This document shows positions 4,417 through 40,921 of a stretch of 64,000 bases of DNA, piece by piece. This DNA comes from an uncultured Chloroflexia bacterium (GTDB taxonomy: Bacteria; Chloroflexota; Limnocylindria; QHBO01), in contig CAWDVA010000005.1 in NCBI GenBank assembly GCA_963805645.1, forward strand, positions 62,113-126,112, given 5' to 3'. Each line of letters starts with the position of its first letter. Position 1 is the first letter of the stretch. The translations under genes were made by a program, and so were the position numbers. Below the pieces are notes generated by a model. It had not been told where the DNA came from. It saw only the letters and a program-made list of their open reading frames with translations, and did not search any database.

Positions 4417-4448
4417 GGGCCGATCGCGGCGCTCCACCTTGTGGTCAT

Positions 4449-12269: not shown

Positions 12270-13253
12270 ATGCACCACCGTTTCCCCCGTATCGTTGGAG
12301 CGCTTGGACTCGCCATCGCCCTGAGCAGCGGCATGCTCGCCAGCACGGCCGTCGCGTCGAACCCAGCTGGCTGGTTGGCGTCTGTAACGCCGGAGCCGAG
12401 CAAGGTCTCAGCGGGCGACAGCGCTGCCTTTCTCGTGAAGTTCGTAAACCAAGGCCCAAGCAACATCTCGCAGCTGTACCTGACGGCTGCCACCCCGAAG
12501 GATGCGACGTTCATCGTTGCCACGCCGAGTCAGGGCACCTGCAACACGTCAGGCCCGCTTTACTGCGACCTCGGCGCGGTGAACGCGGATGCATCGGCGT
12601 CGCTGAGCGACCCAGAGGTCACGATTACCATCGTGTACCAGACTCCGGCGTCTGGCTCCTCGATGCCCATTACTTTCCAGCTCAACACCACCGGGGTCGC
12701 TTCAGACAAAGGCAACAACAGCCACGGGGATGCCTATAACCTGCCGACCTCGGTCACTCTGAGCACCTCCAATCGAGATTTCGCGGGCCGCTACATCTAC
12801 GACTCGTCGTTCTACGTCTTCACCGATCCCTCGTTCAGCCACAGGAATCCCCACAGCACCGCAGTCACCGCGCCTGGTACCGATATGCCCGTCACGGTGG
12901 CGGATCAGGACGGCAGCACGTATGCATGCCCTGCGGACATCGCGAGTGACTGCTTTGGGCAATGGTCCGTCGTTTCTGTGGACAGCGGAGAGCCGTTCCC
13001 GGCGACTGGTTTCCAGGTCGTCCTTGGCTTCAGCCACTTCGAGCTTCATGGGGGCGTCAACGCCGGCAACATTCAGATTGTCCACCTGATCAGTGCTGAC
13101 CCCGGGTACGAACTCATCACGCAGGCAGACAACACATGCACTTCGGCAACGCCCGATGTCAGCGAGATGCCTTGCATGATCCCGGAGCAGGATGGGAACG
13201 ATGTGATCGTGACCCTGTGGCTGCTCCAGAACGGTCCAATCCGCGGATGGTGA
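12270..13253 (+). CDS. Secreted Ser/Thr-rich hypothetical protein (signal peptide), on a lower-GC island
   Basis: Signal peptide MHHRFPRIVGALGLAIALSSGMLASTAVAS; GAGGAAG RBS. Local GC is about 58-60% against about 72% in the flanks. Confidence 0.6.
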   Translation: MHHRFPRIVGALGLAIALSSGMLASTAVASNPAGWLASVTPEPSKVSAGDSAAFLVKFVNQGPSNISQLYLTAATPKDATFIVATPSQGTCNTSGPLYCDLGAVNADASASLSDPEVTITIVYQTPASGSSMPITFQLNTTGVASDKGNNSHGDAYNLPTSVTLSTSNRDFAGRYIYDSSFYVFTDPSFSHRNPHSTAVTAPGTDMPVTVADQDGSTYACPADIASDCFGQWSVVSVDSGEPFPATGFQVVLGFSHFELHGGVNAGNIQIVHLISADPGYELITQADNTCTSATPDVSEMPCMIPEQDGNDVIVTLWLLQNGPIRGW

Positions 13254-13278
13254 AACCCTTAGGGTTCCGCGCTGAAAT

Positions 13279-13304
13279 CGACGCCCGGTCTCAGGACCGG
13301 GCGT
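13279..13304. terminator. Perfect 11-bp-stem hairpin GACGCCCGGTC-TCAG-GACCGGGCGTC between convergent genes
   Basis: Read directly from sequence; overlaps the stop of the minus-strand cyclase-STAND gene. Confidence 0.45.
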
Positions 13305-16300: not shown

Positions 16301-17202
16301 ACGGCCCGCAGGGCCTCGGGGCTGGGCCGGTCGCCCGATTCGGTGACGGGTCGCGGATCCGCGAAGACCAGGGTCACCGTCTTGCGCCGGTCCGCTGCTG
16401 GTGCGGTGCGGTCCAGGACGGCGCCGCAGGTGCCGCAGGTGACGAAATCGGCCGGGTTGTCCTCACCGCAGCTGGGGCAGGCGCGAGCGCCGTCGCTGGC
16501 CGCGTCCTTCGACTCGTTGACCGACGCCTCCGCCGCAGCCGAGACGGCCACCAGCCGGTAGGCCGTGATGGGTTCCTCGAGGCCCTTGGGGACGAAGGGG
16601 CCAATGGGCTCGACCTCTACGGCGTCGCGCACGATCTCGTAGGTCGAGCCGGCCAGCAGCGCCTCCGACGGCAGAGCGTTCTGCTCCATCACCGTGGCGA
16701 TGCGCATGGTGTCCCCGGTGAGCACGTGCTGGCCCTCGCTCGCCTCGCCGACGATCACCTCGCCCGTGGCGATCCCGGTCCGGTTGACCAGCTCGACGCC
16801 GTAGATTCGTTCGAACTGCTCGTTCAGCGAGCTGAGCGTCCGCAGGCTCTCGACAGCGGCCACCACGCCGCGCAAGGGATCGTTGTCATGGTGGGTCGGC
16901 AGTCCGAAGACCGCGACGATAGCGTCGCCGATGATCTTCTCGATCGTCCCCCCGTGCGACTCGAAGACGATGCGCATCTCGTCGAAGTAGCGGGTGAGGA
17001 GCTCGCGAAGCGACTCGGGATCCAGGCGCTCACCCAGCGCGGTCGAGCCCTTGAGATCCGAGGTCACGACAGTGACCGTCCGACGAATCTCTTCGGGAGC
17101 GCGGCTCGGATCCAGGACCGTTCCACAGTACCCACAACGTCGGAACCGATCCGGAACGGACCGGCCGCAGTGCGGACACGGCATTGCTTGCACCCGATTC
17201 AT
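13291..17202 (-). CDS. Multidomain signalling protein: two tandem (zinc-ribbon + class III cyclase) modules, then NB-ARC/AAA STAND ATPase, then TPR repeats
   Basis: CPHCG...CGYCG and CPSCG...CGTCG zinc ribbons each precede a CHD (FSDLKGST / FADPRPVT...GDAVNTAARLE). Walker A GDAGVGKSRL; long C-terminal TPR-like helical region. No C-terminal LuxR HTH. Confidence 0.85.
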   Translation of the reverse strand: MNRVQAMPCPHCGRSVPDRFRRCGYCGTVLDPSRAPEEIRRTVTVVTSDLKGSTALGERLDPESLRELLTRYFDEMRIVFESHGGTIEKIIGDAIVAVFGLPTHHDNDPLRGVVAAVESLRTLSSLNEQFERIYGVELVNRTGIATGEVIVGEASEGQHVLTGDTMRIATVMEQNALPSEALLAGSTYEIVRDAVEVEPIGPFVPKGLEEPITAYRLVAVSAAAEASVNESKDAASDGARACPSCGEDNPADFVTCGTCGAVLDRTAPAADRRKTVTLVFADPRPVTESGDRPSPEALRAVMSRYFDVMRPILERHGGTVEKFIGDAVMAVYGLPTLHEDDALRAVRAALEMQQALPALNAEIASDWGVSFESHIGVNTGEVIAGDASLGQRLVTGDAVNTAARLEQAAGAREVLLGDLTYRLAREQIEVDEVEPLTLKGKAEPVPAFRLRGVATVDQAVHRRNDAPMVGREQEMAALAGLYARATEQGSCELATVVGDAGVGKSRLIAEFTASAAAGARVIRGKCLPYGDGITFWPLREAARDAAGIGVDEGAESALGKLRSAIEAEEVVDRLASVMGLSTTPYPVPEIQWGARKFLEHLAGTQPVVMIVEDIHWAETTFLELLQNLVTNVEHAPVLLLCTSRHELLDRDPDWGLADGAVRLVLRPLSDADAGMVVAGLLGGTGLPEVVQQRIVDAAAGNPLFVEQLLSMLIDNGSLRQADGHWEQVRDLTALEVPPTIQALLAARLDLLQSTERGVIEPASVIGQTFAQAAVAELVPADASPQVPDHLRAIARRELITSSAGTGEDEAAYKFAHILVRDAAYNGLLKRARADFHERFVDWAEELNLRQGRAGHEFEEIHGYHLEQAYRYLSELGTIDEHARRVGIRASEKLSSAGRRAQARGDMPAAASLLRRAVSTRSLSDPDRLAILPDLGESLMELGEFEDAERVLKEAIAGAREHSDDRLEAEASLLALMLQLYTADATDWAESVATQVDRAVPIFEAMDDHAGLALAWRLRFGMFGTEGKYGDAARAADQVIEHARLAGDFRAQTRGASGYATSAPYGPIPVPEAIERCEELARSSHGDQRTVATINSALSQLYAMRGEFEKARDLYRGARATLEDLGAGVLSASTSIDSSRVELLAGDLAAAERELRRDYDALTAMGEKFLLSTIAGFLGHVEIEAGHLDAAGALADEVRDLAPPDDIDSQAMWRAVKARVVALEGQRDEGVALAREAVEISRRADAPRLQADMLVALAATEGACGHPSDANQHFSDALRLYEGKGDLISSARIRSELGTSDARS

Positions 17203-21770: not shown

Positions 21771-21824
21771 GGCGGCGGCGCGGGGCATGCGGTACCCTAG
21801 GACGAGATGCCCGGAGGTGATGCC

Positions 21825-22754
21825 GTGACCGCGACCATGGACGAATCTGCCCGCGCTGAGGCGTTCTACGCGCACGTCTCCGGCGGCGGCAAGGTCGAGG
21901 CGGACGACCCGATGCCGGACGACTACCGTGCCGCCGTCCTCAAGTTCGTCGAGATGCACGCCAACTCGGAGCTCATGGGCGTGCTGCCGGAGCGCGAATG
22001 GATCCTCCGCGCGCCGACCCTCAAGCGCAAGCTGGCACTGACCAGCAAGGTCCAGGACGAGGTGGGCCATGCCCAGCTCCTGTACCGCGTGGCTGAGGAC
22101 CTGGGCAAGCCTCGTGAGCAGATGCTCGCGGACCTGATGGATGGCAAGACCAAGTTCCACAACGTCTTCCATTACCCAACCGAGTCGTGGGCCGATGTCG
22201 GCATCATCGCCTGGCTCGTGGACGCAGCAGCGATCGTCTCGCAGCAGGCGCTGCGAGACTCCTCGTACGCGCCGTACGCACGGACGATGAAGAAGATCTG
22301 CTGGGAGGAGAGCGTCCACATCATGCACGGGCGCGACGTGGTGCTCACCATGATGAACGGGACCGACTCCCAGCGCGCGCTTGTCCAGGATGCCCTGGAC
22401 CGATGGTGGGGCCCGCTGATGCAGATGCACGGCCCGCCCACCGACCCCGCGAAGGATCGGGACCTGATCTGGAAGATCAAGGCCAAGAGCAACGAGCAGC
22501 TTCGCCAGGAGTTCCTGTCCATCTACGTCCCGCGGATCCTGGAGCTGGGCCTGACGCTCCCGGACCCGGAGCTGCTCTACGACGAGGCGGAGGGTCGCTG
22601 GCACTACACCGAACCCGACTGGAACGAGCTCCGGTCAGTGGTGACCGGACACGGGCCGCGCTCGCAGGAGCGCCTCGCCTTCCGCCGCCAGAACTACGAC
22701 GCGACCCAATGGGTTCGTAACGCGATCCTGGGAGCTGCGCCCGCGGCGGCTTGA
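21825..22754 (+). CDS. paaA: 1,2-phenylacetyl-CoA epoxidase subunit A
   Basis: Di-iron ferritin-like oxygenase motifs (EMHANSELMG...EVGHAQLL...EESVHIMHG). GGAGG RBS before the GTG at 21825; alternative ATG at 21807 or 21837. Confidence 0.85.
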   Translation: MTATMDESARAEAFYAHVSGGGKVEADDPMPDDYRAAVLKFVEMHANSELMGVLPEREWILRAPTLKRKLALTSKVQDEVGHAQLLYRVAEDLGKPREQMLADLMDGKTKFHNVFHYPTESWADVGIIAWLVDAAAIVSQQALRDSSYAPYARTMKKICWEESVHIMHGRDVVLTMMNGTDSQRALVQDALDRWWGPLMQMHGPPTDPAKDRDLIWKIKAKSNEQLRQEFLSIYVPRILELGLTLPDPELLYDEAEGRWHYTEPDWNELRSVVTGHGPRSQERLAFRRQNYDATQWVRNAILGAAPAAA

Positions 22755-22817
22755 CCCATGCCCCCCGCGCCGCGGTCTGCCCGTCCCATTCCGCGGGCCG
22801 CGCGGTACCCTTCCCGC

Positions 22818-23174
22818 ATGGAGCAGCAGACGCAACCACGCGACAGGGTGTGGGAGGTCTTTTCGCAGGAAGCGGAGGGGGACCCCATGGTCCATTCGGG
22901 CAGCGTCCGGGCACCCGACGATGAGCTCGCCCTCCACTACGCCCGCGAGTTCTACGGCCGCCGGCAGGAGAGCCACCGCCTGTGGGTGGTTGACCGGGCG
23001 GAGATCACCGAGCTGGATGACCCGGACCTGCTGAATCCGCCCTTCGATCGGTCGTTCAAGCGCCCAGGCGGGTACATCATCAAGCACAAGCTCGAGGCAG
23101 CCAAGGCGCGGGTGGGGGCGCGGGCTGCGCAGTCGGACGACGAGTCGACCGCCGCAGGAGAGCCGGTCGCGTGA
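22818..23174 (+). CDS. paaB: 1,2-phenylacetyl-CoA epoxidase subunit B
   Basis: WEVFSQEAEGDPMVHSGSVRAPD...LHYAREFYGRR matches PaaB. Confidence 0.85.
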   Translation: MEQQTQPRDRVWEVFSQEAEGDPMVHSGSVRAPDDELALHYAREFYGRRQESHRLWVVDRAEITELDDPDLLNPPFDRSFKRPGGYIIKHKLEAAKARVGARAAQSDDESTAAGEPVA

Positions 23175-23953
23175 CCAGCATCCCGGTACCCGACACTGCG
23201 CTCCCGCGCGACGCCGTCGCGGAGCTGCTGCTGAGCCTCGCTGACGACGAGTTCGTCATCGGCTTCTGGGACTCGGAGTGGACCGGGATCGCGCCGATGC
23301 TCGAGGAGGATGTCGCGACCAGCTCCATCAGCCAGGACGAGATCGGGCACGCCAGGGCGCTTCACGAGCTCCGCGCCCAGCTGACCGGCGAGGACCCTGA
23401 TCTGGTCGCCTTCGGGCGGAACCCCGACGAGTATCGGCACGCGGCCCTGCTGAACCATCCGCGCACCGACTGGGCGTTCACCGTCGCCCGCCGCTACCTG
23501 TACGAGACCGCGGATGCCGTGCGTCTCGAGGCGCTGGCCCTGTCCACCTATGAGCCGCTCGCCCTGCTTGCGGCCAAGATGCGGCGCGAGGAGCGGTACC
23601 ACCTCATGCATCTTGGCGCCTGGATGGAGCGGCTGGCGCGCGGCGGTCCTGACACGCATCGTCGCCTCGCGGAGGCGCTCGTCACCCTGTGGCCCGACGC
23701 GCAGACGGTCTTCACGCCACTCGACGGTGAGCGAGCACTCGTGGAGAGCGGTGTCCTGCCCGAGCCGATGGTGGCGCTCCGACGCCGCTGGGCGAAGGAG
23801 ATCGGAGAGACGCTGGGTAGCCTGGATCTCCCGGTGCCGGACGCCACCCTGGAACCGACGGCCGACGGGCGCCGTCGCCGGACCGACGACTTTCGCTGGC
23901 TCCACGGCGAGTTCACGATGGTCGCGCGCTCGGACCCGGAGGCGACGTGGTAG
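23171..23953 (+). CDS. paaC: 1,2-phenylacetyl-CoA epoxidase subunit C
   Basis: GTG start overlapping the paaB stop. ADDEFVIGFWDSEW...SQDEIGHARALH ferritin-like. Confidence 0.75.
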   Translation: MTSIPVPDTALPRDAVAELLLSLADDEFVIGFWDSEWTGIAPMLEEDVATSSISQDEIGHARALHELRAQLTGEDPDLVAFGRNPDEYRHAALLNHPRTDWAFTVARRYLYETADAVRLEALALSTYEPLALLAAKMRREERYHLMHLGAWMERLARGGPDTHRRLAEALVTLWPDAQTVFTPLDGERALVESGVLPEPMVALRRRWAKEIGETLGSLDLPVPDATLEPTADGRRRRTDDFRWLHGEFTMVARSDPEATW

Positions 23954-24453
23954 CCACCCGTGACCCGCGCGAGACGGTCGTCTGGGCGGCCCTCGACGAG
24001 GTGTCCGATCCCGAGATTCCCACCATCAGCGTCGTGGAGCTGGGGGTCATCCGCGGTTTCGCCTTCGAGGAGCAGGCCGGTGGTGGCGAGCGCCTGCGGG
24101 TCGAGCTGTTGCCGACCTTCGTCGGCTGCCCGGCCATCGACATCATGCGCGAGCAGGTGGGGGAGCGGCTGCGGGCGCTGGGTGTCGCCGACGACGTGAT
24201 CGTCGAGCTCAGCTTCGCCGAGCCGTGGACATCTGAGCGGATCTCGGAGGCGGGCCGCGAGAAGCTGCGCGGCAGCGGCTTCGCCCCGCCGGCGGTGGGC
24301 GGCAGCCTGCTGACCATGGTGGACGACACGCCCTGCCCGTACTGCGGATCGCGCAACACGTCGCTGGACAATCCGTTCGGTCCGACCCTGTGCCGCGCCA
24401 TCTACCACTGCGACGACTGCCACCAGCCGTTCGAGCAGTTCAAGGCGATTTGA
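23947..24453 (+). CDS. paaD: Phenylacetate-CoA oxygenase subunit PaaD
   Basis: DPEIPTISVVELGVI...TFVGCPA and C-terminal CPYCGS...CDDC Cys cluster. Confidence 0.75.
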   Translation: MVATRDPRETVVWAALDEVSDPEIPTISVVELGVIRGFAFEEQAGGGERLRVELLPTFVGCPAIDIMREQVGERLRALGVADDVIVELSFAEPWTSERISEAGREKLRGSGFAPPAVGGSLLTMVDDTPCPYCGSRNTSLDNPFGPTLCRAIYHCDDCHQPFEQFKAI

Positions 24454-24456
24454 ACC

Positions 24457-24939
24457 ATGGCGTCCATCGCCAGGCGCGCCGTCGTCGCCGGGGCCCTGGG
24501 ACTGCTGCTGGCCTGCGGCGCCTGTGCCGCGAACCCCTCGCCGTCGCCGACCGGTGCACTCCCCTCACCAACGGCCAGTGCCTCTGCCGGCGATGCCGCG
24601 GCGACCGCCCAGTTCAACCTCTTCCTGCGTGCTCCCGTGCCACACACGACCGCCTTTCGCCTCTTCGTCCAGACCGATCCACCGGCGGTCGATGAGACGC
24701 ACCGCGTGTTCTGCGGTTCGGCCACCGGCGACCCGCAGGCCTGTGATCCATCGCGGTTTCCGCTCACCGTGCGCGTGGGCGGGCTGATGGGCGGCTCCAT
24801 GCTGAGCTACCGTTTCGAGCGCGTGGACAGCGACGGGAGCGTGGAGACCCTGGACCAGGGCAGTGCCCGACTGGATCGGGCCCTCATTCGCGAATTCACC
24901 TACCCAACGCCGGCACCCACGCCCCGCCCCACCCCGTAG
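24457..24939 (+). CDS. Putative lipoprotein (signal peptide with lipobox LLAC)
   Basis: MASIARRAVVAGALGLLLACGACAANPSPSP. Ends 50 nt before the heliorhodopsin gene. Confidence 0.55.
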   Translation: MASIARRAVVAGALGLLLACGACAANPSPSPTGALPSPTASASAGDAAATAQFNLFLRAPVPHTTAFRLFVQTDPPAVDETHRVFCGSATGDPQACDPSRFPLTVRVGGLMGGSMLSYRFERVDSDGSVETLDQGSARLDRALIREFTYPTPAPTPRPTP

Positions 24940-24988
24940 CGCGTAATCGGCCGGAGATCCATCGCCCGGTATCATCCGTATCAAGGCC

Positions 24989-25798
24989 ATGAACCAGATC
25001 GCCTCGTCTCTCCCCGGCGCAGCGCCCGTCCCCGACATCGCGGCGGTCGAGCGACGCATCGGACGGCTCCGCATCTACAACGTTGTCATGGGCTTCCTGC
25101 ATCTCGTGCAGGGTGCCGCCATCCTGGTGCTGGCCAACGACTTCGCCCTGCCGGTGACGGCGTCCTTCATGGCCGGACCACCCGGCTCCGGCCTCGTTCG
25201 CGACACGACCCTCTTTGACCTCCGCTTCGGGTGGGCCATCGCAGCGTTCCTGTTCCTCTCCGCGGCGGCGCACTTCCTGGTCGCGAGCCCGGGCATCTTC
25301 GGCTGGTATCGCGCCAACCTGCTGCGCGGCCGCAACTACGCGCGCTGGATCGAGTACGCGTTCAGCTCATCGCTGATGGTGGTGCTGATCGCCATGCTGC
25401 CCGGGATCAGCGACGTGGCCGCCCTGGGTGCGATCTTCGGGGTGAACGCGGCGATGATCCTCTTCGGCCTGCTGATGGAGCACTACGAGCAGCCAGGCCG
25501 GCCGAACTGGATGAGCTACTGGTTCGGTGTGCTCGCGGGCGCGGTGCCCTGGATCCTCATCGGCATCTACCTGTGGAATCCTGGATCGGAGGTTGCGGCA
25601 CCCGCCTTCGTGTACGCGATCTTCATCTCGCTCTTCGTCTTCTTCAACAGCTTCGCGGTCAACATGGTGCTGCAGTACCGGCGCGTGGGGCCGTGGCGCA
25701 ACTACCTGTTCGGCGAGTCGGTCTACATCGCCCTGTCTCTGCTGGCCAAGTCGGCGCTGGCCTGGCAGGTCTTCGCCGGGACCCTCGCACCGCGCTGA
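24989..25798 (+). CDS. Heliorhodopsin (7TM retinal protein, inverted topology family)
   Basis: RIYNVVMGFLHLVQ...NYARWIEYAFSSSLMVVLIAML...IFGVNAAMILFG...FFNSFAVNM...LSLLAKSALAWQVFAGTLAP. TM7 lysine in the SLLAKSALAW context and a TM3 glutamate, as in characterised heliorhodopsins. Confidence 0.8.
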   Translation: MNQIASSLPGAAPVPDIAAVERRIGRLRIYNVVMGFLHLVQGAAILVLANDFALPVTASFMAGPPGSGLVRDTTLFDLRFGWAIAAFLFLSAAAHFLVASPGIFGWYRANLLRGRNYARWIEYAFSSSLMVVLIAMLPGISDVAALGAIFGVNAAMILFGLLMEHYEQPGRPNWMSYWFGVLAGAVPWILIGIYLWNPGSEVAAPAFVYAIFISLFVFFNSFAVNMVLQYRRVGPWRNYLFGESVYIALSLLAKSALAWQVFAGTLAPR

Positions 25799-25846
25799 CG
25801 GACGCGGCCGAGCGCGCCTGGCCGATGCGCTACGCTTGCGCGCACC

Positions 25847-27658
25847 ATGGCCATCGACTCTGACGAGTACCGCTCCGCGGCACACGAGCTCCTCGACGCA
25901 GGCGCGCATGATCCGCTCGACACCATGCGCCACTCGGCCGCGCACATCATGGCCTCGGCCGTCCTCGAGCTGTTCCCCGACGCGAAGCTGGGCATCGGCC
26001 CTGCCATCAAGGACGGGTTCTACTACGACTTCGACCTGCCGCGGCCGCTGACCCCTGCCGACCTCGAGGCGATCGAGGGCAAGATGCGCGAGCAGGTGGC
26101 GGCGGACCTGGCCTTCCAGCGTACCGAGCTGGATCGCGAGGCCGCCCTGGCCCAGCTCGAGTCCGAGAAGCAGCCCTTCAAGGTCGAGATCGTTCGCGAG
26201 CTTCCCGACGAGGAGGCGCGGATCGTCAGCTTCTACCGCCACGGCGACTTCAACGACCTGTGCCGCGGGCCGCACGTCGCGACCACGGGACGGCTGGGGC
26301 CGTTCAAGCTGCTCAACAGCGCTGCGGCCTACTGGCGCGGTGACGAGAAGCGACCCATGCTCCAGCGCATCTACGGCACGGTCTGGGAGACGCAGGAGGA
26401 CCTGGACCGCTACCTGTGGCGCCTCGAGCAGGCCCGCGCTCGCGACCATCGGCGCCTGGGCCGGGAGCTGGACCTGTTCACCTTCCATCCGGAGTCGCCG
26501 GCGGCCCCCTTCTGGCATCCGAAGGGCATGGTCCTGTACCGAACCCTGGAGGCGTGGTCGCGCCAGGTCCGTGCCGATGGCGGGTTCGCGGAGGTGCGCA
26601 CGCCATCACTGGTCCGCCGCGAGCTCTGGGAGCAGTCCGGGCACTGGGACCTCTACCAGGACAACATGTTCGTCCTGGACGACTACGACCATCCCTCCGG
26701 GCTCAAGCCCATGAACTGCCCGCAGGAGATCCTGGTCTACAAGACACGGTCCCGCTCGTACCGCGACCTCCCGATTCGCTTCGCCGACTACTCGACCCTG
26801 TTCCGCAAGGAGCGCACGGGGGCCCTGGCCGGCATGTTCCGGGTGCGCCAGCTCACCCAGGACGACTCCCACGTGTTCTGCCGGGAGGACCAGATCGCCG
26901 ATGAGCTGCGCCTGGCCCTCTCGCTGGTGAAGCGGCAGTTCGCACCGTTCGGCTTCGAACCGCGCTTCAAGCTCGCCACCCGCCCGGCCAAGAAGCTGGG
27001 CAGCGACGAGTTCTGGGACATGGCCGAGGGCAAGCTGCGGGACGCCCTCGAAGCGGACCAGCTTCCGTATACCCTCGATCCGGGCGGTGCGGCCTTCTAC
27101 GCCCCGAAGATCGACGTCTTCATCGAGGATGCGCTGGGACGGGAGTGGCAGATGGCGACCGTCCAGCTCGACTACCAGCTGCCGCAGCGGTTCGACCTGG
27201 AGTACCGCACCGCCGATGGCGGCTTCGAGCGACCGGTGATGATCCACTACGCGATCTACGGCACCTTCGAGCGCTTCACCGGGATCATCGTCGAGCACTT
27301 CGCCGGCGCCTTCCCGCTCTGGCTCGCGCCGGTGCAGGTGGTGGTCATCCCCATCGCAGATCGGCATCTCGAGTACGCCGGATCGGTTCGCGATGCCCTG
27401 GCCGCCGCGGGCATCCGGGCCGAGGTGGACGAGCGCTCCGAACGGATGCAGGCCAAGCTGCGCGACGCGCAGGAACAGCAGATTCCCGTCATGCTCGTGG
27501 TGGGCGACCGCGACCAGGAGGCCGGGGCGGTGAGCCCGCGGCTGCGCACCGGGCGCACCCGACAGGGGGTTCCACTCGATGAGTTCGTCGAGCACCTCCG
27601 GACGCGCAGCGAGGCCCGGGAGCTGTGGCCCTACGACGACAACGCCCCCGCTGACTGA
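25847..27658 (+). CDS. thrS: Threonine--tRNA ligase (lacks N-terminal TGS domain)
   Basis: RHSAAHIMA editing-domain motif, class II catalytic core, C-terminal anticodon-binding domain; 603 aa. Confidence 0.9.
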   Translation: MAIDSDEYRSAAHELLDAGAHDPLDTMRHSAAHIMASAVLELFPDAKLGIGPAIKDGFYYDFDLPRPLTPADLEAIEGKMREQVAADLAFQRTELDREAALAQLESEKQPFKVEIVRELPDEEARIVSFYRHGDFNDLCRGPHVATTGRLGPFKLLNSAAAYWRGDEKRPMLQRIYGTVWETQEDLDRYLWRLEQARARDHRRLGRELDLFTFHPESPAAPFWHPKGMVLYRTLEAWSRQVRADGGFAEVRTPSLVRRELWEQSGHWDLYQDNMFVLDDYDHPSGLKPMNCPQEILVYKTRSRSYRDLPIRFADYSTLFRKERTGALAGMFRVRQLTQDDSHVFCREDQIADELRLALSLVKRQFAPFGFEPRFKLATRPAKKLGSDEFWDMAEGKLRDALEADQLPYTLDPGGAAFYAPKIDVFIEDALGREWQMATVQLDYQLPQRFDLEYRTADGGFERPVMIHYAIYGTFERFTGIIVEHFAGAFPLWLAPVQVVVIPIADRHLEYAGSVRDALAAAGIRAEVDERSERMQAKLRDAQEQQIPVMLVVGDRDQEAGAVSPRLRTGRTRQGVPLDEFVEHLRTRSEARELWPYDDNAPAD

Positions 27659-27676
27659 GCGATCACCGTGAGGAAG

Positions 27677-28033
27677 ATGCGCGGCGTCGGCCAGCTGGCC
27701 CTCCGCTCGACCGACCCGCTGCGCTGCGCCGAGTTCTACGCGCATGCCTTCGGCTTCAAGCTCCGGGCGGGGAACGAAGCCGGCGTGGACCTTGAGCTCG
27801 GCGGGTTCGAGCTCTCGTTCCGGCGGGCCGAGACAGCCACCCGAGACGGGATCCAGATCGGCTTCCGCGTCGACACCGCATCCGAGGTGGACGGCTGGGC
27901 GCAGGAGCTGGCGCAGCGCGGATTCGCGCTGGTTGCGCCGCCCTCGGGCGATCGCTGGGAGGGGTCTCGGTCGTTCCGCGTCGCGGACCCCGACGGACGC
28001 CAGGTCGCCGTCTTCTACGACTGGCCGACGTGA
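27677..28033 (+). CDS. VOC (glyoxalase/bleomycin-resistance) family protein
   Basis: GAGGAAG RBS before the ATG; small beta-alpha-beta-beta-beta VOC fold signature. Confidence 0.65.
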   Translation: MRGVGQLALRSTDPLRCAEFYAHAFGFKLRAGNEAGVDLELGGFELSFRRAETATRDGIQIGFRVDTASEVDGWAQELAQRGFALVAPPSGDRWEGSRSFRVADPDGRQVAVFYDWPT

Positions 28034-33750: not shown

Positions 33751-34400
33751 TCGCGCTGCCCGCGGGAGGGCCGGCGGACCCGGCAACCGCGGACACCGGA
33801 AATCCGCCGGCGGGACCCCCCATCACCGATCGCGCCTGGTTCGACCGCTCGGCCCTTGCAGTCGCCACGGCACTCCTGGGCTGCCGGCTCGTCCACGCCA
33901 CGGCCGACGGGGTCGTGGCCGGGCGCATCGTGGAAACCGAGGCCTACACCGGGCCCGAGGATCTTGCCTCTCACGCCGCGCACGGCCAGACGGCCCGAAA
34001 CCGGACCATGTTCGGCGCGCCGGGACACCTCTACGTCTACCTGGTCTATGGCATCCATCACTGCGTCAACGTGGTCTGCGGACCCGGGGCCAAACCGGAG
34101 GCGGTCCTCATCCGCGCCGTCGCGCTGGAGGAGGGCCTGCAGCTGGCCCGCGCCCGCCGCGGCGAACGTGCAGCCGCCCACCGCCTGGCATCGGGACCGG
34201 GCAACGTGGCCCGTGCCTTCGGCATCGATCGCGGCCTGGACGGCGCCGACCTGCTGGCCGGACCCGTGACCATCACGGATGGCCTCCCCGCCAAGCGGAT
34301 CTCGCGCCGGCCCCGCGTGGGCGTCGCCTACGCGGGTGCATGGGCCTCTCGACCGTATCGCTTCCTGGTGACCGATGACCCGCACGTCTCCCGTCGCTGA
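33747..34400 (+). CDS. mpg: DNA-3-methyladenine glycosylase (Mpg/AAG family); start uncertain
   Basis: FDRSALAVATALLGCRL...GRIVETEAYTGPEDLASHA...GHLYVYLVYGIHHCVNVV. GTG overlapping the cvpA stop is the only nearby start. Confidence 0.7.
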   Translation: MIALPAGGPADPATADTGNPPAGPPITDRAWFDRSALAVATALLGCRLVHATADGVVAGRIVETEAYTGPEDLASHAAHGQTARNRTMFGAPGHLYVYLVYGIHHCVNVVCGPGAKPEAVLIRAVALEEGLQLARARRGERAAAHRLASGPGNVARAFGIDRGLDGADLLAGPVTITDGLPAKRISRRPRVGVAYAGAWASRPYRFLVTDDPHVSRR

Positions 34401-36834
34401 TCCTGATCGGGCGCCGGCACCCGGCGCCGCGGCTGATCCAGGAACCCTGCGCGCCCTGGAGTTCAGCGCGATCGTCGAGCGCCTCGCGGCGCGGACCGCG
34501 TTCGCGCCGTCTCGCGAGCTGGCCGAGGCCATGCTGCCCATGGCACATGCGCGCCACGTCGCCCTGCTCCAGGAGCAGACCGACGAAGCCGCCCGGCTCC
34601 TGGACGAGCAGGCGCAGGCCACGGTGGGCGGGGCACGGGACGTTCGCGGAGCACTCGAGCGCGCCCGGCGCGGGGGGCGCCTTGCCGCCGCGGAGCTCCT
34701 GGAGATCGCCGATACGCTTCGCGCCACGTCCGGCTTCGCCGCGCGTCTCGCCAGCTGGCGTGGCCCGCACCTCGGGGAGGTGCGCGACCTGCTGGAGGAC
34801 GCGCCGGCGCTCCGCGAACGGATCGAGCGCAGCGTCGACGAGGCCGGCGAGGTCCTGGACACCGCATCTGCGGACCTCGCCGCCATCCGCAAGCGGATGC
34901 GGACCGCCCAGGATCGCGTCCGCGAGCGCCTGAACGCCATGCTGCGCTCGACCGACCTGGCGAGCGCCATCGGCGAGGCGATCGTGACCGTCCGGGCCGG
35001 CCGCTACGTCATACCCGTGCGCGCCGAGGCCAAGAGCCGGGTCAAGGGCATCGTCCACGACCAGAGCGCATCGGGTGCGACTCTCTTCGTCGAGCCGCTG
35101 GGCGTGGTGGAGCTGAACAACACCTGGACCCAGGCCGCCCTCGACGAACAGCGGGAGGTCGAGCGGGTGCTCGAAGCGCTCTCGCGCGGGGTGGAGGCAC
35201 AGGCGGAGGCGCTCACCGCCTCTCTCCAGGCGCTGGCGCGGGCGGATCTGTGGATGGCCAGGGCCCGTCTCGGTGCCGAGCTGGACGGCGTGCGCCCGGC
35301 GGTATCCGCCGATGCCCTCGAGCTGCTCTCCGCCCGCCATCCTCTGCTGGGGCCCGGCGCGGTGCCCATCGACCTTCGGCTCGGGGACCGGTTCGGGTAC
35401 CGGGCCATGGTCATCACCGGTCCCAACACGGGCGGCAAGACCGTGTCACTCAAGACGCTCGGATTGCTGGCCCTCATGCACCAGGCCGGCCTGCGCGTGC
35501 CGGCCGCCGACGGCGCCCGTCTGCCGGTCTTCGAGCGGGTCATGGCCGACATCGGCGACGAGCAGAGCATTGCGCAGTCGCTCTCCACCTTCTCGAGCCA
35601 CCTGCGCAACGTGGTGCGATTCGTCGAATCCGCCGGCGAGGGTGCGCTCGTGCTCCTCGACGAGATCGGCGCGGGCACCGACCCCACCGAGGGGTCTGCC
35701 CTGGCCATGGCCATCGTCGAGCGGCTCCTGGCCGCCGGCGCCACGGTCGCCGCCACGACGCACTACGCCGAGCTCAAGACCTTCGCGACCGACCACCCGA
35801 ACGTCACGAACGCATCGGTCGAGTTCGACGTGGCGACGCTGCGCCCCACGTATCGCCTCACCATCGGGCTGCCGGGCAAGAGCCAGGCCTTCGCCATCGC
35901 GGAGCGCCTTGGGCTGCCCCAGGAGGTTCTTGCCGACGCGCAGCAGCGTCTCTCGGCCGAGCACCTGTCCATGGAGGAGACGCTCGCCGCCATCCAGCGT
36001 GCCGAGGTCGCCCGCGGCGAGGAGCTGGAGGAGGCGCGCGGCGATCGGCAGCGAGCCCGCGAGGAGCGCGAACGCGCGCGGGCCGGCATCGCCCGTGCGC
36101 GTCGCGAGGCGGCGCAGATCCTCGCCGATGCCCGCCACGCAGCCGACGACCTGCTCGGTCGCACGGAGCGCGAGGTGGCCGACCTGCGCCGCGAGATGCA
36201 TCGCCTGGAGAACGTCACTCGCGGCCGGCGACGCGGCCCGGGCGAGGCGGGGCTGGAGGTGCTGGAGCAGCGCGCCGCCGCGGCCCGCGCGGCCGCGGAC
36301 GATGCGATCGCGCCCCGCTCTCCCGGATCTGAGGCTCGAGCGGACGGCGATACCCCCATGGGCGAGGGCGCGGAGGTCCAGCCGCGCGTCGGGCTGTGGG
36401 GTCGCAGCCGCACGTTGGGAAGCACGGGCCGCATCGTGGAGCGCTCGGGGAAGACCGGGCGCCTGACGCTGGAAACCGAGGGTGCCCGGCTGGTCCTGCC
36501 CGCCGACGACGTCGAGGTGGTGCCCGAACCGATCAGCGGCCCACCGCCGCGCGATGCCGAGGCCGACGAGATGCGCCGCCGCGCCGCCGCTCGGGTGACG
36601 CCCACGCTCGATCTGCACGGAGAGCGAGTGGCGGCCGCGCTGGAGCGGGTGGACGAGTACCTCAACGACGCCCTGCTGGCCGGCATGGACAGCGTTGCGA
36701 TCATCCACGGCGCGGGGACCGGTGCCCTCCGCCGCGCCGTGCGGGAGCACCTCACCCAGCACCCGCGCGTGCGCGGAGCCCGTCCCGGCCGCCGCGAGGA
36801 GGGCGGCGACGGGGCGACGATCGTCGAGCTCTAG
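34375..36834 (+). CDS. mutS2: Endonuclease MutS2 (with C-terminal Smr domain)
   Basis: LEFSAIVERLA N-terminus, Walker A GPNTGGKT, C-terminal Smr (TLDLHGERV...AIIHGAGTGALR). Confidence 0.85.
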   Translation: MTRTSPVADPDRAPAPGAAADPGTLRALEFSAIVERLAARTAFAPSRELAEAMLPMAHARHVALLQEQTDEAARLLDEQAQATVGGARDVRGALERARRGGRLAAAELLEIADTLRATSGFAARLASWRGPHLGEVRDLLEDAPALRERIERSVDEAGEVLDTASADLAAIRKRMRTAQDRVRERLNAMLRSTDLASAIGEAIVTVRAGRYVIPVRAEAKSRVKGIVHDQSASGATLFVEPLGVVELNNTWTQAALDEQREVERVLEALSRGVEAQAEALTASLQALARADLWMARARLGAELDGVRPAVSADALELLSARHPLLGPGAVPIDLRLGDRFGYRAMVITGPNTGGKTVSLKTLGLLALMHQAGLRVPAADGARLPVFERVMADIGDEQSIAQSLSTFSSHLRNVVRFVESAGEGALVLLDEIGAGTDPTEGSALAMAIVERLLAAGATVAATTHYAELKTFATDHPNVTNASVEFDVATLRPTYRLTIGLPGKSQAFAIAERLGLPQEVLADAQQRLSAEHLSMEETLAAIQRAEVARGEELEEARGDRQRAREERERARAGIARARREAAQILADARHAADDLLGRTEREVADLRREMHRLENVTRGRRRGPGEAGLEVLEQRAAAARAAADDAIAPRSPGSEARADGDTPMGEGAEVQPRVGLWGRSRTLGSTGRIVERSGKTGRLTLETEGARLVLPADDVEVVPEPISGPPPRDAEADEMRRRAAARVTPTLDLHGERVAAALERVDEYLNDALLAGMDSVAIIHGAGTGALRRAVREHLTQHPRVRGARPGRREEGGDGATIVEL

Positions 36835-39609
36835 GGCGCCGCGGTCGGGGTTGGGATCGGGGTGGGGGTCACGACGGGCGCCGGCGTGGGCGTCCCTGAT
36901 CCCTTCGGGGTGGGCTTGGGCGGGGGACTGATGCTCGGCCCTGGGGTCACGGTCGCCTCGGGCGTGGGGCTCGGCGACGGGGTGGGGGACGGGTGTTGGT
37001 GTCGAGGTCGGGACCTCGCCCGGGGTGCACAGCTGGGTGGGCGCCAGCGGGGCGTCCAGGGCCGGGGTCGGGAAGCGCGGCACCTTTGACTCCCTGCCGC
37101 GCCACTTGTCGATCCACTTGACGTTCGCGCTGACCCAGGTGGGCTGGTCCGCGTTCCACTTCGACAGATCCAGGTAGACCTCGCTGGCCGGTGCCGTGGG
37201 GCTGGCCGAGGCCGACGGGCTGACGCCGGGGCTCGCCGATGCGTCGGGCACCGGCGTGGCACCCAGCTGGTCGCCGCAGCCGGGCTGCCAGATCTTGCCG
37301 GTCGCTGCCTCGATGGTGAGCTGCACGTGCGTCGTGTCCTGCTGTGTCGGCACGTCATCGGCCTTGAAGACCTCGGTGACGGTCCTGGTCGTGTGAGGAC
37401 CCGGCAGCATGCCGCTGATGGCGTCGACCTTCTTCTCGACGATGCCCTCGGGCCGGATGAAGTCGTTGTCGGGCAGCTTGTTCTTCGCCGCGACCTCCGC
37501 CATGTAGTCATGCCAGATGAACGTGGGTCCATCCGCGGCGAACACGCCCTTGATCGGCGAGTTGTCGCTGTTTCCCACCCAGACGCCGGTGACGATGGCG
37601 CCTGTGCTGTCGCTCGTATCCTTGGCGGGAGCCAGGTAGCCGAAGGCCTGCAGGTCCTTGAAGTCGTTCGTGGTCCCCGTCTTCAGGGTTGCGGGTCGTC
37701 GGCCGCCGTCGAGTCCGGGCAGCTGGAAGCTGGGACCCCACCACGGGTTGGCCCTTGGATCGGTGTTGTCGGCAAGGATGTCGGTGGTCAGGTACGCGGC
37801 CTGCGCCGAGAGGACCCGCTTGGGCTGTTCGCCGTCGGTGGCATGGTCGTAGATGACCGTCCCGTTGCGATCCGTGATCTTCTCGATCAGGTACGGCGAG
37901 GCGAGCTCGCCGCCGTTGGCGATGGCACCGTAGGCGCCCGCCAGGTCGATCATGTGGACGCCGATGGTGCCCAGGGTCAGCGAGGGCACCGCCACCTCCT
38001 GCTCCTGGCGCGGATCCCAGCGGATGCCCATCTTCACGGCCTGGTCCACGACGTTCTGCGTCCCGATCACCTGCTGCGCCTTCACTGCCGGGATGTTCAG
38101 CGAGTACTTCAGCGCGTCGCGGATGCGGACGGGGCCGCGCTCCTGGTTGTCCGCGTCCGGCACGGAGTAGCCGTTCACGATGTCGCCCCGCACGTCCATG
38201 AACATGGACGCCGGCGTGATCTTGTTCAGCTCGAAGCCGGTGGAGTAGGTGATGGGCTTGAAGGCGGACCCCGCCTGCCGGTAGGCGGTGCCCACCACGT
38301 CGTAGTAGGGCTTGAAGGTGTCCGACTCCTCGCCGTAGTAGTTGGCGCTGCCGACATAGGCCAGCACGGCGCCGGTCCGGTAGTTCACGGTGACCAGCGC
38401 GTCGTTGTTGATGTTCCGCTTCTGGTTGAGCCGGTTGATCCAGGTCATGGCCGCCGAGCCGTATTTCGCCTTGAGCTGGGCCGTGGTCATGTGGTTCATG
38501 TCGTAGGCGATGGCCGCCCATTTCTCGGCCGAGACCTGGTAGCCGTTGTAGTCGAGGGTTGTGGTGATGGTCAGCCCGCCCGAGTCCAGAAGTGTCTCGC
38601 CACCAAGGAGGTCGTTCGCCGCCGCGCGCACGGCGTAGACGAAGTGGGGCGCCTTGTACTGCTGCGATTTCGTGGGCGCCAGGACGATCGTCTCCTGCTT
38701 CGCGGCGTCGTGCTGCGCCTGGGTGATGAACCCCGACGAGAGCATGTTGTCGAGCACGTAGCCCTCGACGCGGGCGGCATCGGCGTCAGCGGGCACCACG
38801 AGGATCTTGTTGCCATCAGCATCGGTCTGCTGCACCTCGGCCTTGGTGGGATCGAGCGCCGATGGCGCTCGCACCAGGCCGGCCAGCATGGCCGCCTCGC
38901 CCAGCGTCAGGGTGTTCGCCGCATCGGTCTTCGTGATGTCCTTGCCGAAGTAGGCGTTGGCTGCCGCCCAGATCCCGTAGGCGTTGTCGCCGTAGTAGAT
39001 CTGGTTCATGTACATCTCGAGGATCTTCTGCTTGCCCGCGTCGCCGCTGTAGCGCTGCCCCAGGCGCAGGGCGAGGACGGCCTCCTTGAGCTTGCGCTCG
39101 ACCTGGCGGCTGGGGTCGGCGAGCAGGTCCGCACCGAAGAGGCGCATCCGGACCAGCTGCTGGCAGATCGTCGACGCTCCGGAGACCTCGCGACCGGAGG
39201 TGACGTTCTGCAGGAAGGCACGCACGATGCTGCGGAAGTCCACGCACGGGTTGGTCCAGAAGGTCTGGTCCTCCGCGGCGACCTGGGCATCCACCATGAC
39301 CTGGGGAATCTGATCGAAGGTGATGGACCGGCGCTGCTCGGCAGCGAAGGTCGCCAGCTGGACGCCGTCGGCCGAGAGCACCTCCGATCCCTCGGAGAGC
39401 TGGAAGTCCTCCACCCCTGCGACGTTCGGCAGCCCCGAGGTGTACGACGCGTAGACCGCCATCACGCCCAGGAACAGGCCGGCGGCCAGCACGGCGGAGA
39501 CGCCCAGGATCATCGCGGGCAGGGCCGCGAGGGAGCCGGATGATCGAGGGCGCGCGGAACGGCGCGGTGCGGGGCCGCGCTGCGGCCGCGGCGGAAGGCG
39601 TCGGGTCAT
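36831..39609 (-). CDS. ponA: Class A penicillin-binding protein (transglycosylase + transpeptidase); 3' boundary unresolved
   Basis: TM anchor, GT51 motifs (EDQTFWTNPCVDF, RMRLF), TP motifs (SAFKP, SLN, KTGTT). The in-frame ORF (35446..39711) has no stop for 1.39 kb antisense to mutS2. An alternative frame ends at 36831 with a Pro/Thr-rich tail. Confidence 0.7.
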
Positions 39610-39655
39610 CGGCCGAGCAGAGTAGCACGGACCGTACCGGTATACTCCACCGGCC

Positions 39656-40921
39656 ATGAGCGGCTCCGTGTTCGACGACCTCAGCTGGCGCAACCTCATC
39701 GCGCACAGCACCGACCCCGATGCACTGCGCGCGGCGCTGGACGGCGCACCGGTCGTCTTCTACTGCGGCTTCGACCCCACCGCGCCGAGCCTCCATTTCG
39801 GGAACCTGGTCCAGCTGGTCACCATGCGCCGCCTGCAGCTGGGCGGGCACAGCCCGATCGCCGTGGTGGGCGGCGCAACCGGCCTGATCGGCGACCCGAG
39901 CGGACGCAGCGAGGAGCGGGCGCTGAACGCCGAGGAGGTCGTCGCCGACTGGGTCGAACGCATCCGCGGCCAGGTGGAGCGCTACCTCTCATTCGAGGGC
40001 CACAACGCCGCGCGCGTGGTGAACAACCTGGAGTGGTCCCGGCCGATGCACGCGATCGAGTTCCTGCGCGACGTCGGCAAGCACTTCAGCGTCAACCGCA
40101 TGCTCGACAAGGAGGTCGTGAGCGCGCGACTGGAGACGGGCATCAGCTACACGGAATTCAGCTACCAGCTGCTGCAGGCACTCGACTACCTGGAGCTCCA
40201 TCGCCGTTACGGCGCCGTGCTGCAGACCGGTGGCAGCGACCAGTGGGGCAACCTGACCGGGGGCGTCGACCTCATCCGACGCGTCACCGGCGACACGGTG
40301 CATGCCCTGGCGACCCCCCTCATCACCAAGGCGGACGGCACCAAGTACGGCAAGACGGCGAGCGGCTCCATCTGGCTGGATCCGCAGATGACCAGCCCGT
40401 TCGCGTTCTACCAGTACTTCCTCAACCAGGCCGATGCCGACGTCGGTGCGCTGCTGCGCACGTTCAGCTTCCGGACGCATGAGGAGATCGAGGCGCTCGA
40501 TCGCGCCACGACCGAGCGACCAGAGGAGCGTGCAGCGCAGCGGGCGCTGGCCGGTGAGCTCACCGCGCTCGTGCACGGGGAGGAGGAGTCCGAACGTGCT
40601 CTGGCGGCATCCTGGGCCCTGTTCGGCCAGGGTGACCTGGGCGCGCTCGAGGCCGCGACGCTGGCAGCCGCCACCGCCGAGCTGCCGCGAGCCGAGGTTC
40701 CCGCCGCGGCCCTTCCCTCGGTGGTGGACCTGCTGGTGGCCACCGGGCTGTGCGAGAGCCGCGGCGCTGCCAAACGAGCCGTTGCCGAGGGGGGTGTCTA
40801 TCTCAACAACGCCCGCGTGAGCGACGCCGGTACGAGCCCGGATCCCGCCGACCTCCTGGCGGGTCGCTGGCTGATCCTGCGTCGGGGACGGCGTTCCCTG
40901 GCAGCCGTCGAGGCCCGCTGA
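39656..40921 (+). CDS. tyrS: Tyrosine--tRNA ligase
   Basis: HFGNL (HIGH-like) and KYGKTASG (KMSKS-like) motifs; C-terminal S4 domain. Confidence 0.9.

Follow-up and report, generated by a model that had tools for sequence, protein, structure and literature searches.

Heliorhodopsins (HeRs) are a family of light-sensing membrane proteins that has been known since 2018 and whose hosts are, as a rule, monoderm prokaryotes. HeRs of the 48C12 type were reportedly found by Pushkarev et al. in 2018 not to transport ions. HeRs act via binding partners, among them a glutamine synthetase (PMC9529153), a photolyase (PMC9769723) and an ABC transporter (PMC11109279), and their genes often have neighbours that serve translation or the response to oxidative stress, members of the glyoxalase family included (PMC8612252; 10.1101/2021.02.16.431466). 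Tight linkage was used as an operon criterion by Bulzu et al. (PMC8612252). A viral HeR, V2HeR3, transports protons (PMC9448325). A 2025 preprint proposes that HeRs acquire exogenous carotenoids from outside, uses a carotenoid-site motif to argue for a light-harvesting role and sets the transporting viral HeRs apart as a subfamily without the carotenoid site (10.1101/2025.11.27.691015).

Here we describe an HeR gene in a 64-kb stretch of DNA (the window, by which we mean the whole stretch analysed). An earlier note on this DNA had suggested that the HeR and a lipoprotein encoded upstream of it may be a functional unit. In its fuller form this reading makes the pair specific to one clade, the lipoprotein docking on the extracellular face of the HeR and either delivering retinal or a xanthophyll or relaying or receiving the light signal. 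The account that we consider probable is a different one: a sensor HeR of the 48C12 type with a recent, dispensable and non-general lipoprotein neighbour, at a variable junction between paaD and thrS.

Organization of the locus

The features of the region are as follows:

21807-22754, + strand, paaA (NCBIfam TIGR02156, 392 bits, cut-off 280)
22758-23174, + strand, paaB (61 bits, below the cut-off of 85.45)
23171-23953, + strand, paaC (TIGR02158, 210 bits, cut-off 133)
23947-24453, + strand, paaD (TIGR02159, 151 bits, cut-off 108)
24457-24939, + strand, small lipoprotein gene (160 aa; lipobox, in-frame GC3 of 0.82, orthologues in 6 lineages)
24940-24988, + strand, spacer from the lipoprotein stop to the HeR start (49 nt)
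24989-25798, + strand, heliorhodopsin gene (269 aa; Pfam PF18761, NCBIfam NF038020)
25847-27658, + strand, thrS, following the HeR gene (TIGR00418, 655 bits)
27668-28033, + strand, glyoxalase-family gene, after thrS (PF00903)

The HeR ORF, the ORF upstream of it and thrS downstream were all found where the earlier note had placed them; the gap between the first two is 49 nt, not 50. On the upstream side, the junction is flanked by paaABCD (21807..24453), which encode subunits of the phenylacetyl-CoA epoxidase type; the scanned window genes include neither paaE nor another reductase of the PaaE type. Its downstream flank consists of thrS and the glyoxalase-family gene (25847..28033). The whole region around paa, HeR and thrS is a long, tightly packed and co-directional array. 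Gaps along paaA-paaB-paaC-paaD-lipoprotein measure 3, -4, -7 and 3 nt, the last being the distance from the paaD stop to the lipoprotein ATG, and the lipoprotein gene forms the end of the tightly packed paaABCD string.

A site scan from paaA to thrS detected no promoter-like or terminator-like site in the 49-nt spacer, its only matches being a terminator-like site inside paaB and a promoter-like site before infC. At the related loci L003-L007 and L013 the lipoprotein ORF is longer and takes up this spacer, so that it and the HeR gene share 4 nt at the HeR ATG. Given the 3-nt and 49-nt gaps, this overlap in relatives and the scan result, the lipoprotein and HeR genes are probably co-transcribed. 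The window gave no matches when scanned for Rfam families and tRNAs, so neither a T-box nor another leader was indicated between HeR and thrS. The shared strand, the short gap and the 4-nt overlap speak for a functional unit, and because such packing amounts to operon linkage in the sense of Bulzu et al., a lipoprotein-HeR interaction specific to the clade is conceivable. The packing, however, is tighter against paaD (0-6 nt among the loci) than against HeR, which argues the other way.

The heliorhodopsin

The 269-aa ORF matched the Pfam model PF18761 from end to end (profile positions 1-242 of 242; E = 8.9e-100, 333.4 bits, cut-off 26.7) as well as the NCBIfam equivalog NF038020, 'heliorhodopsin HeR' (331.8 bits, cut-off 100), and 7943 homologues were retrieved at E <= 1e-20. 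These searches bear out the family assignment of the earlier note, whose four quoted peptide stretches are all present in the translation. In a phmmer alignment to 6su3, the Schiff-base lysine is K254 in TM7 (K241 of 48C12) and the counterion glutamate is E122 in TM3 (E107), the lysine being the residue on which the assignment had been expected to turn; the histidine pair His38/His95 aligns with His23/His80, and Ser250 is present (S237 in 48C12). The proposed carotenoid-site motif is found as Y177/V181/G184/F219/N220/A223.

Seven hydrophobic segments were recognized. Under an N-in model, the predicted loops hold 12 K+R inside versus 3 outside, a count that is indirect because loop boundaries were carried over from the alignment and from hydropathy. 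This positive-inside pattern fits the inverted topology, with a cytoplasmic N-terminus and the C-terminus outside, in line with the N-in orientation anticipated earlier. Ratios of dN/dS versus orthologues (0.05-0.14) indicate strong purifying selection on the HeR. Judged by its sequence, the ORF encodes a full-length bacterial HeR, canonical and of the 48C12 type; the host is an uncultured Chloroflexota lineage from soil. By analogy with characterized family members, the protein would bind all-trans retinal, undergo a slow photocycle with no net ion transport and serve as a light sensor, modulating a partner protein through direct contact with it. The gene itself adds little beyond cataloguing, as the NCBIfam equivalog names it automatically and the residues that it encodes are the ones known from 48C12, a well-studied protein.

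A Pfam scan of 40 called genes of the 64-kb window (a dozen or so other called ORFs were inspected by eye or skipped) gave no match to BCD/Blh, RPE65, CrtI-type amino oxidase, SQS_PSY or lycopene cyclase, in agreement with the earlier observation that retinal-synthesis genes are not seen here. That observation had been presented as worthy of remark; it is instead the published norm for HeRs and already a generalization, since blh is rare around HeRs and HeR-only genomes mostly do not have a full retinal pathway (PMC8612252; 10.1101/2021.02.16.431466). Retinal for this HeR would come either from synthesis genes at other places in the genome or from uptake of an external supply. A window without the retinal pathway and an HeR that keeps the proposed carotenoid-site motif (10.1101/2025.11.27.691015) are both what one would expect if the lipoprotein delivered a chromophore.

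The upstream lipoprotein

The product of the upstream ORF matched nothing in Pfam or NCBIfam and belongs to no named family. Its N-terminus (MASIARRAVVAGALGLLLAC20GAC23) comprises a basic region, then hydrophobic residues and a lipobox with Cys as its last residue, the lipobox having been called by eye and by a PROSITE-type rule. In the window sequence alone the lipid-modified residue is ambiguous (LLLAC20 or CGAC23); C23 is the invariant lipobox Cys in six orthologues, where it lies within LGAC, MSAC or LAAC, and a lipobox Cys is found in most full-length members of the family. The protein is Ala/Pro-rich. A linker rich in Ser, Pro and Ala (about residues 24-50) leads into a predicted seven-stranded beta-sandwich domain (about residues 48-149 in an AF2 model with a pLDDT of 69 overall and 70-89 within the domain), two Cys of which, C86 and C96, are invariant in 24 sequences. 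Foldseek comparison of the model with the PDB returned only generic beta-sandwich matches, the best being CBM20 starch-binding and FN3 domains, at query-normalized TM-scores of 0.3-0.4 and 7-14% identity.

The ORF has been kept open in 6 lineages with dN/dS of 0.31-0.50 and evolves 3-5 times faster than the HeR. An exhaustive profile search gave 31 matches among 1.84e9 representatives, and a word-indexed profile search with the 24-member alignment only 4 proteins. The conserved lipobox Cys, the orthologues and the C86/C96 pair uphold the earlier prediction of a lipoprotein gene, and ORF 24457..24939 can be regarded as a real, fast-evolving gene. Its product is predicted to be lipidated and cleaved, to yield a membrane-anchored extracytoplasmic lipoprotein with a beta-sandwich domain. 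The host envelope we take to be monoderm, as is usual for Chloroflexota; in a monoderm, a lipoprotein is tethered to the external side of the membrane in which the HeR resides. This small unnamed family (lipobox, linker and disulfide-containing beta-sandwich) could be given a DUF-type description.

An extracytoplasmic location, as predicted from the lipobox and the two invariant Cys, is the one that a partner docking on the extracellular face would need. The generic fold, however, has no recognizable lipid- or carotenoid-binding relatives, and the faster evolution of the lipoprotein comes with no sign of co-evolution with the HeR; both count against the pair as a unit.

Distribution among related genomes

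Among relatives, whose flanks were compared over +/-8 kb, the junction between paaD and thrS exists in three states: (i) empty, with thrS straight after paaD (L100, L106 and L107; 27 nt between the two genes in L100), (ii) HeR alone, with paaD abutting HeR (L010, L011, L016, L039, L044, L103-L105, L108 and L109) and (iii) lipoprotein plus HeR. The loci without HeR nest among HeR-bearing lineages in the tree, support for their positions being moderate (0.42-0.55). The third state is confined to one narrow clade. When 91 HeR loci were scanned with an HMM, the lipoprotein domain turned up in that clade alone, and it was absent near about 65 other HeR loci. Weak HMM matches beside HeR at L035, L062 and L084 proved to be unrelated lipoproteins in which only signal peptide, lipobox and linker were matched. 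A distant family member, P0146, lies in an integrase/holin neighbourhood that contains no HeR.

Locus L012 is nested in the lipoprotein-bearing clade (bootstrap 0.93-1.0). There, paaD is followed after 60 nt by an HeR that is 93% identical to that of the window (omega 0.08-0.12), and the lipoprotein gene is missing. The evidence for this loss is a single contig of a long-read MAG in which indel errors are evident, but such errors do not explain the loss because the entire gene of about 500 nt is gone. We rejected the reading of the L012 paa genes as pseudogenes: thrS on that contig is frame-split as well, so the frame breaks are attributed to assembly indels.

Taken together, the distribution indicates that the lipoprotein gene was gained once, recently, between paaD and HeR in a narrow Chloroflexota clade and was later lost in L012. 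Inserted in this way, it would very probably be co-transcribed with HeR. As far as sequence comparison can tell, the HeR does not need the lipoprotein, and the lipoprotein is no general HeR partner. The co-occurrence of the two genes is seen in one small clade and does not recur across lineages. More broadly, HeR and lipoprotein both behave as optional cassettes at this junction, and its three states advise caution in inferring function from adjacency in packed co-directional arrays.

Alternative explanations

How far do these data leave room for a functional unit? In L005-L007 the lipoprotein-HeR pair has stayed intact through a rearrangement of the downstream side, as a unit should. The pair is nevertheless not a general one, because close relatives have lost the lipoprotein without change to the rhodopsin: a single gain followed by loss beside a 93% identical HeR still under an omega of about 0.1, absence from all sister lineages as well as from the other HeR loci scanned, and a distant relative in an unrelated, mobile-element-like context all count against a unit. 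We therefore regard the unit as stated in the earlier note as weakly supported, and its clade-specific form as very unlikely. If the lipoprotein did bind the HeR, this would bear on what HeRs do and on chromophore acquisition from outside the cell.

A related proposal is that, in one young clade of soil Chloroflexota, a newly acquired outer-leaflet lipoprotein was recruited as an extracellular accessory of the HeR, capturing exogenous retinal or a xanthophyll or coupling the photoreceptor to the envelope. Translational coupling of the two genes in several relatives, and a predicted location of the lipoprotein on the right side of the membrane, keep this proposal conceivable, and it would provide the first extracytoplasmic HeR partner; we nonetheless give it a very low probability.

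The neighbour on the other side of the lipoprotein offers a further candidate. By analogy with the glutamine synthetase and photolyase cases, in which HeRs regulate soluble enzymes encoded next to them (PMC9529153, PMC9769723), the HeR might be a light-dependent regulator of the PaaABCD di-iron oxygenase, phenylacetyl-CoA epoxidase. Adjacency of paaABCD and HeR reaches deep into this lineage (HeR identity down to 66%) with short gaps of 0-95 nt, two independent downstream rearrangements (in L005-L007 and in L012) left HeR on the paa side, and published neighbourhood surveys tie HeRs to oxidative-stress genes. The paa genes, however, do not need the HeR, because L100, L106 and L107 keep intact paaABCD-thrS without it. 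No paa gene was found near any HeR outside the window's lineage among the HeR loci compared; since the adjacency is confined to one lineage, it has not recurred independently, and surveys that covered hundreds to thousands of HeR loci do not list paa as a neighbour class. Adjacency is in any case weak evidence in a region that is long, tightly packed and co-directional throughout. A regulatory link to paa is thus judged highly improbable.

That the HeR transduces energy or transports ions (as a proton transporter like V2HeR3 or a light harvester with a carotenoid antenna) and is not a sensor is scarcely credible, the proton transport of one viral HeR (PMC9448325) and the carotenoid-site motif in the window HeR being outweighed by its 53% identity to 48C12 with the same counterion and histidine cluster, by the assignment of transporting viral HeRs to a separate subfamily without the carotenoid site (10.1101/2025.11.27.691015) and by the putative nature of any function of HeR carotenoid binding. 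The preferred reading remains the sensor HeR with a recent and dispensable lipoprotein neighbour.

Comparison with described heliorhodopsins

The closest described protein is 48C12, the freshwater actinobacterial HeR that is the founding member of the family (PDB 6SU3/6SU4/6UH3), with 132 of 247 aligned residues identical (53%, E = 6e-78). K241/E107/H23/H80/S237/N101/W105/Y108 of 48C12 appear in the window HeR as K254/E122/H38/H95/S250/N116/W120/Y123, and the fenestration motif is common to both. The window HeR differs from 48C12 in an N-terminus that is 15 residues longer, a TM5-TM6 extracellular loop that is two residues shorter, Met (M226) in place of Q213, Val in place of C166 and a host from the Chloroflexota.

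With generic Ig-like or CBM-like beta-sandwich lipoproteins, the upstream gene product has in common a signal peptide, a lipobox Cys, a low-complexity linker and seven strands; unlike them, it has no sequence family assignment and only about 30 detectable members.

As regards gene neighbourhoods, the glutaredoxin/GSHPx, DegV and DUF2177 genes highlighted in surveys (PMC8612252; 10.1101/2021.02.16.431466) are not among the window genes scanned, whereas the succession of HeR, thrS and a glyoxalase-family gene does resemble the neighbourhoods that these surveys describe. The window neighbours (paaD or lipoprotein upstream, thrS downstream) fall into 0 of 10 published neighbour classes. The partners in the AbHeR-glutamine synthetase, TfHeR-photolyase and OcHeR-OmrDE pairs, for which binding has been demonstrated, are cytoplasmic or integral-membrane proteins, whereas the neighbour here is a predicted extracytoplasmic lipoprotein, and one that is dispensable next to HeR (L012). 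What the window does have in common with these three systems is a close neighbour gene on the same strand, suggestive of co-transcription, and an HeR that likely acts through protein contact.

A heliorhodopsin gene within a co-directional array

The heliorhodopsin (HeR) gene is part of a long, tightly packed array of co-directional genes: DAGK/YegS-like kinase, DUF2171, DUF2255, paaA, paaB, paaC, paaD, a small ORF, HeR, thrS, a glyoxalase-family gene and infC. The ORFs that come after infC were assigned by eye to pheS and pheT. The core spacers are 3, -4, -7, 3, 49, 48 and 9 nt. A site scan found no promoter-like or terminator-like site between paaA and thrS, and Rfam and tRNA scans of the window were negative. 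The two ORFs of interest lie where an earlier note had placed them:

24457..24939, + strand: small lipoprotein gene, 160 aa
24989..25798, + strand: HeR gene, 269 aa (Pfam PF18761, NCBIfam NF038020)

A point absent from that note is that only 3 nt lie between the paaD stop and the start of the small ORF. The paaABCD genes (21807-24453; phenylacetyl-CoA epoxidase type) are not accompanied by paaE or another paa pathway gene among the genes scanned in the 64-kb window, and PaaB scores below the NCBIfam cut-off (61 versus 85). Located 17-21 kb upstream of the paa genes are:

278-1516: thiolase gene
1520-3922: hydroxyacyl-CoA dehydrogenase/enoyl-CoA hydratase fusion gene
3823-4437: TetR gene

The 269-aa protein, whose translation contains all four peptides previously quoted as diagnostic, had been correctly identified: it covers the whole Pfam Heliorhodopsin model (PF18761; 333 bits, cut-off 26.7), scores 332 bits against the NCBIfam equivalog 'heliorhodopsin HeR' (NF038020; cut-off 100), and its top matches among solved structures are heliorhodopsins, the first being the founding member 48C12 (6su3; E 6e-78, 132/247 identical residues). 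In this alignment the functional residues of 48C12 map one-to-one onto the window HeR: the Schiff-base lysine K241 to K254, the counterion E107 to E122, H23 and H80 to H38 and H95, S237 to S250, and N101, W105 and Y108 to N116, W120 and Y123. With loops placed from the alignment and hydropathy, 12 Lys+Arg fall on the cytoplasmic side of the N-in model versus 3 on the opposite side, which is consistent with the inverted topology expected of HeRs. The motif described for the carotenoid-binding fenestration of HeRs (aromatic 162/206, small 166/210, Gly169, Asn207; 2025 preprint, 10.1101/2025.11.27.691015) was also found (Y177, F219, V181, A223, G184, N220). As judged from its sequence, the protein is shown here to be a complete, constrained heliorhodopsin in which every residue needed for retinal binding and 48C12-type photochemistry is present; all sequence-level criteria tested place it in the family.

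The Pfam scan covered 40 called genes of the window (about 12 more called ORFs were either inspected by eye or skipped), and among these 40 no BCD/Blh, RPE65, CrtI-type oxidase, phytoene synthase or lycopene cyclase was found. The reported lack of retinal-synthesis genes nearby therefore stands for the genes scanned within 64 kb, but not as a special feature: since Chazan et al. noted the 'rarity of the blh genes ... among HeR neighbors' (10.1101/2021.02.16.431466) and Bulzu et al. found a full retinal pathway in only 1 of 381 HeR-only genomes (PMC8612252), such a lack is not unusual but the norm.

A small lipoprotein family

The small ORF had been passed over by initial gene calling solely because of its high GC2, which results from an Ala/Pro-rich composition; its in-frame GC3 (0.82; gene mean 0.89) is the highest among the + frames. 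It has no match in Pfam or NCBIfam, and among 5.8 billion proteins only three matches were obtained, namely itself and two relatives (54% identity). Orthologues have an open frame in six lineages, with dN/dS of 0.31-0.50, whereas HeR of those genomes has 0.05-0.14; the small ORF is therefore a real, quickly evolving gene. In all orthologues a basic N-terminus precedes a hydrophobic stretch and a lipobox whose Cys is invariant; a Ser/Pro/Ala/Thr linker then leads to a conserved domain of ~100 residues. When 1.84 billion cluster representatives were searched exhaustively with a profile, only 31 proteins were retrieved, most of them lipoproteins of 100-195 aa with the same build. C86 and C96 (window numbering) are invariant across 24 aligned members, consistent with a disulfide in an extracytoplasmic domain. 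The AlphaFold2 model, built from a shallow alignment, has a seven-stranded all-beta domain (pLDDT 70-89 in the domain, 69 overall), for which Foldseek returned from the PDB only generic sandwiches (CBM20, FN3) with low TM-score and 7-14% identity. The product is a predicted lipoprotein with an unassigned beta-sandwich domain, belonging to a tiny unnamed family; the modelled fold offers no clue to a ligand.

One closer family member (P0124) is again encoded directly after paaD, on a contig that ends before the next gene. A distant one (P0146; locus L094, 396-869) has neither HeR nor a paa gene nearby; it is surrounded by unannotated small genes together with an HTH regulator, a phage-type integrase fragment and a holin-family gene. 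This integrase/holin context points to mobile elements as likely carriers of some members.

Variability of the paaD|thrS junction

The reference genomes closest to the window are MAGs that carry the title uncultured Chloroflexia, one deeper relative being labelled Ca. Limnocylindria. In the set of 80 reference-genome loci whose HeRs are most similar (62-93% identity), the order paaABCD-HeR-thrS is confined to this lineage, outside which no paa gene or lipoprotein was found within 8 kb of HeR. Likewise, an HMM of the lipoprotein family applied to every ORF in 91 HeR loci gave no domain match outside the lineage; weak matches beside other HeRs were rejected because only signal peptide and linker were matched.

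The order paaD-lipoprotein-HeR occurs in the window, L001/2, L003/4, L005-7 (= L014), L008/9 (= L015) and L013, and in L003-L007 and L013 the lipoprotein gene and the HeR start overlap by 4 nt. The lipoprotein gene is absent from L010, L011, L016, L039 and L044 and from metagenomic loci L103-L105, L108 and L109, where paaD is 0-95 nt from HeR, and from L012 (spacer 60 nt), whose HeR is the most similar of all (93%). Searching metagenomes with PaaD yielded three loci, L100, L106 and L107, in which thrS directly follows paaD and HeR is missing; in L100 the spacer is 27 nt, and paaABCD, thrS and the glyoxalase gene are all present. The distance of these three from the window is like that of HeR-bearing loci, for example L104, and the tree places them within HeR-bearing lineages (with only moderate support for their exact position). 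From these loci the junction (window 23947-25847) is seen in three states: empty, HeR only, and lipoprotein plus HeR. The paa genes and thrS are independent of HeR, and HeR is independent of the lipoprotein.

In a neighbour-joining tree of flanking proteins, all lipoprotein-bearing loci and L012 form one clade (bootstrap 1.0), with L012 sister to L008 (0.93-1.0) and lipoprotein-less loci outside. One gain and one loss of the lipoprotein gene is the simplest history. The HeR of L012 stayed intact after the loss, and its constraint is unchanged (omega 0.08-0.12). In L012 (5279-16167), matches to paaA, paaB, paaD and even to the essential thrS are broken into several HSPs that differ in frame; pseudogenization was rejected, the breaks in thrS pointing to indel errors in a long-read MAG contig, which calls for caution in fine-scale comparisons.

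Two independent rearrangements occur downstream of HeR, an Opp-type importer in L005-L007 and a LuxR/AAA_16 block in L012. The former (L005-L007 / L014, 8925-12629) is a peptide ABC importer (two permeases and a substrate-binding protein) on the opposite strand, directly after HeR and replacing thrS. The junction behaves like a permissive insertion/deletion site inside a conserved housekeeping array.

Other features of the window

A minus-strand ORF of 1421 aa (35446..39711) is a high-GC artefact, of which only one part is a gene. The genes concerned here, and a short ORF discussed below, are:

34372..36834, + strand: MutS2/Smr gene, real, antisense to the apparent 3' part of the 1421-aa ORF
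36901..39711, - strand: PBP1A-type gene (transglycosylase + transpeptidase), the only real part of that ORF
51643-51993: short ORF, transthyretin/HIU-hydrolase-like by eye

The last belongs to a purine (urate) catabolism cluster (49631-54139) with uricase, a GNAT-OHCU decarboxylase fusion, DUF3830 and an amidohydrolase. Two class III nucleotide cyclase genes and a stand-alone cNMP-binding protein are present (5200-6426, 13291-17202, 47984-48400); one cyclase (1303 aa; two cyclase domains, AAA_16, TPR repeats) is syntenic in relatives L005 and L008. GC dips to 0.64 at 12001-14000, around a DUF11-repeat protein gene (12261-13253). A 401-aa ORF (9163-10368) has good coding statistics without a Pfam match, and 1.8 kb (54821-56674) contain no confident ORF, Rfam match or tRNA.

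Function and comparison with known HeR partners

Most likely, the lipoprotein is a co-transcribed passenger at a permissive junction. The functional unit with HeR suggested in the earlier note is favoured by proximity and weakened by the lack of recurrence across lineages, the gene being lineage-restricted, lacking from several loci even within the lineage, and lost in L012 with HeR intact; a clade-specific extracellular accessory role is very unlikely. A functional tie between HeR and PaaABCD, which the shared gene order within the lineage might favour and the HeR-less junctions speak against, is equally hard to credit, and an ion-transport or light-harvesting role is the least probable of all. 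By analogy with characterised relatives, the window HeR is probably a slow-cycling photosensor that works via protein contact.

Partners are known for other HeRs: glutamine synthetase (PMC9529153), photolyase (PMC9769723) and an ABC exporter (PMC11109279), from which the Opp-type importer of L005-L007 / L014 differs in type. Such units are defined by recurrence across lineages; the lipoprotein-HeR pair shares their proximity but not their recurrence. A 2024 survey distinguishes ten neighbour classes, and the window neighbours fall into none of them; nor do they match the associations (glutaredoxin, GSHPx, DegV, DUF2177) that other surveys describe. Translation and glyoxalase-family genes have, however, been reported near HeRs in those surveys, and in the window thrS and a glyoxalase-family gene follow HeR.
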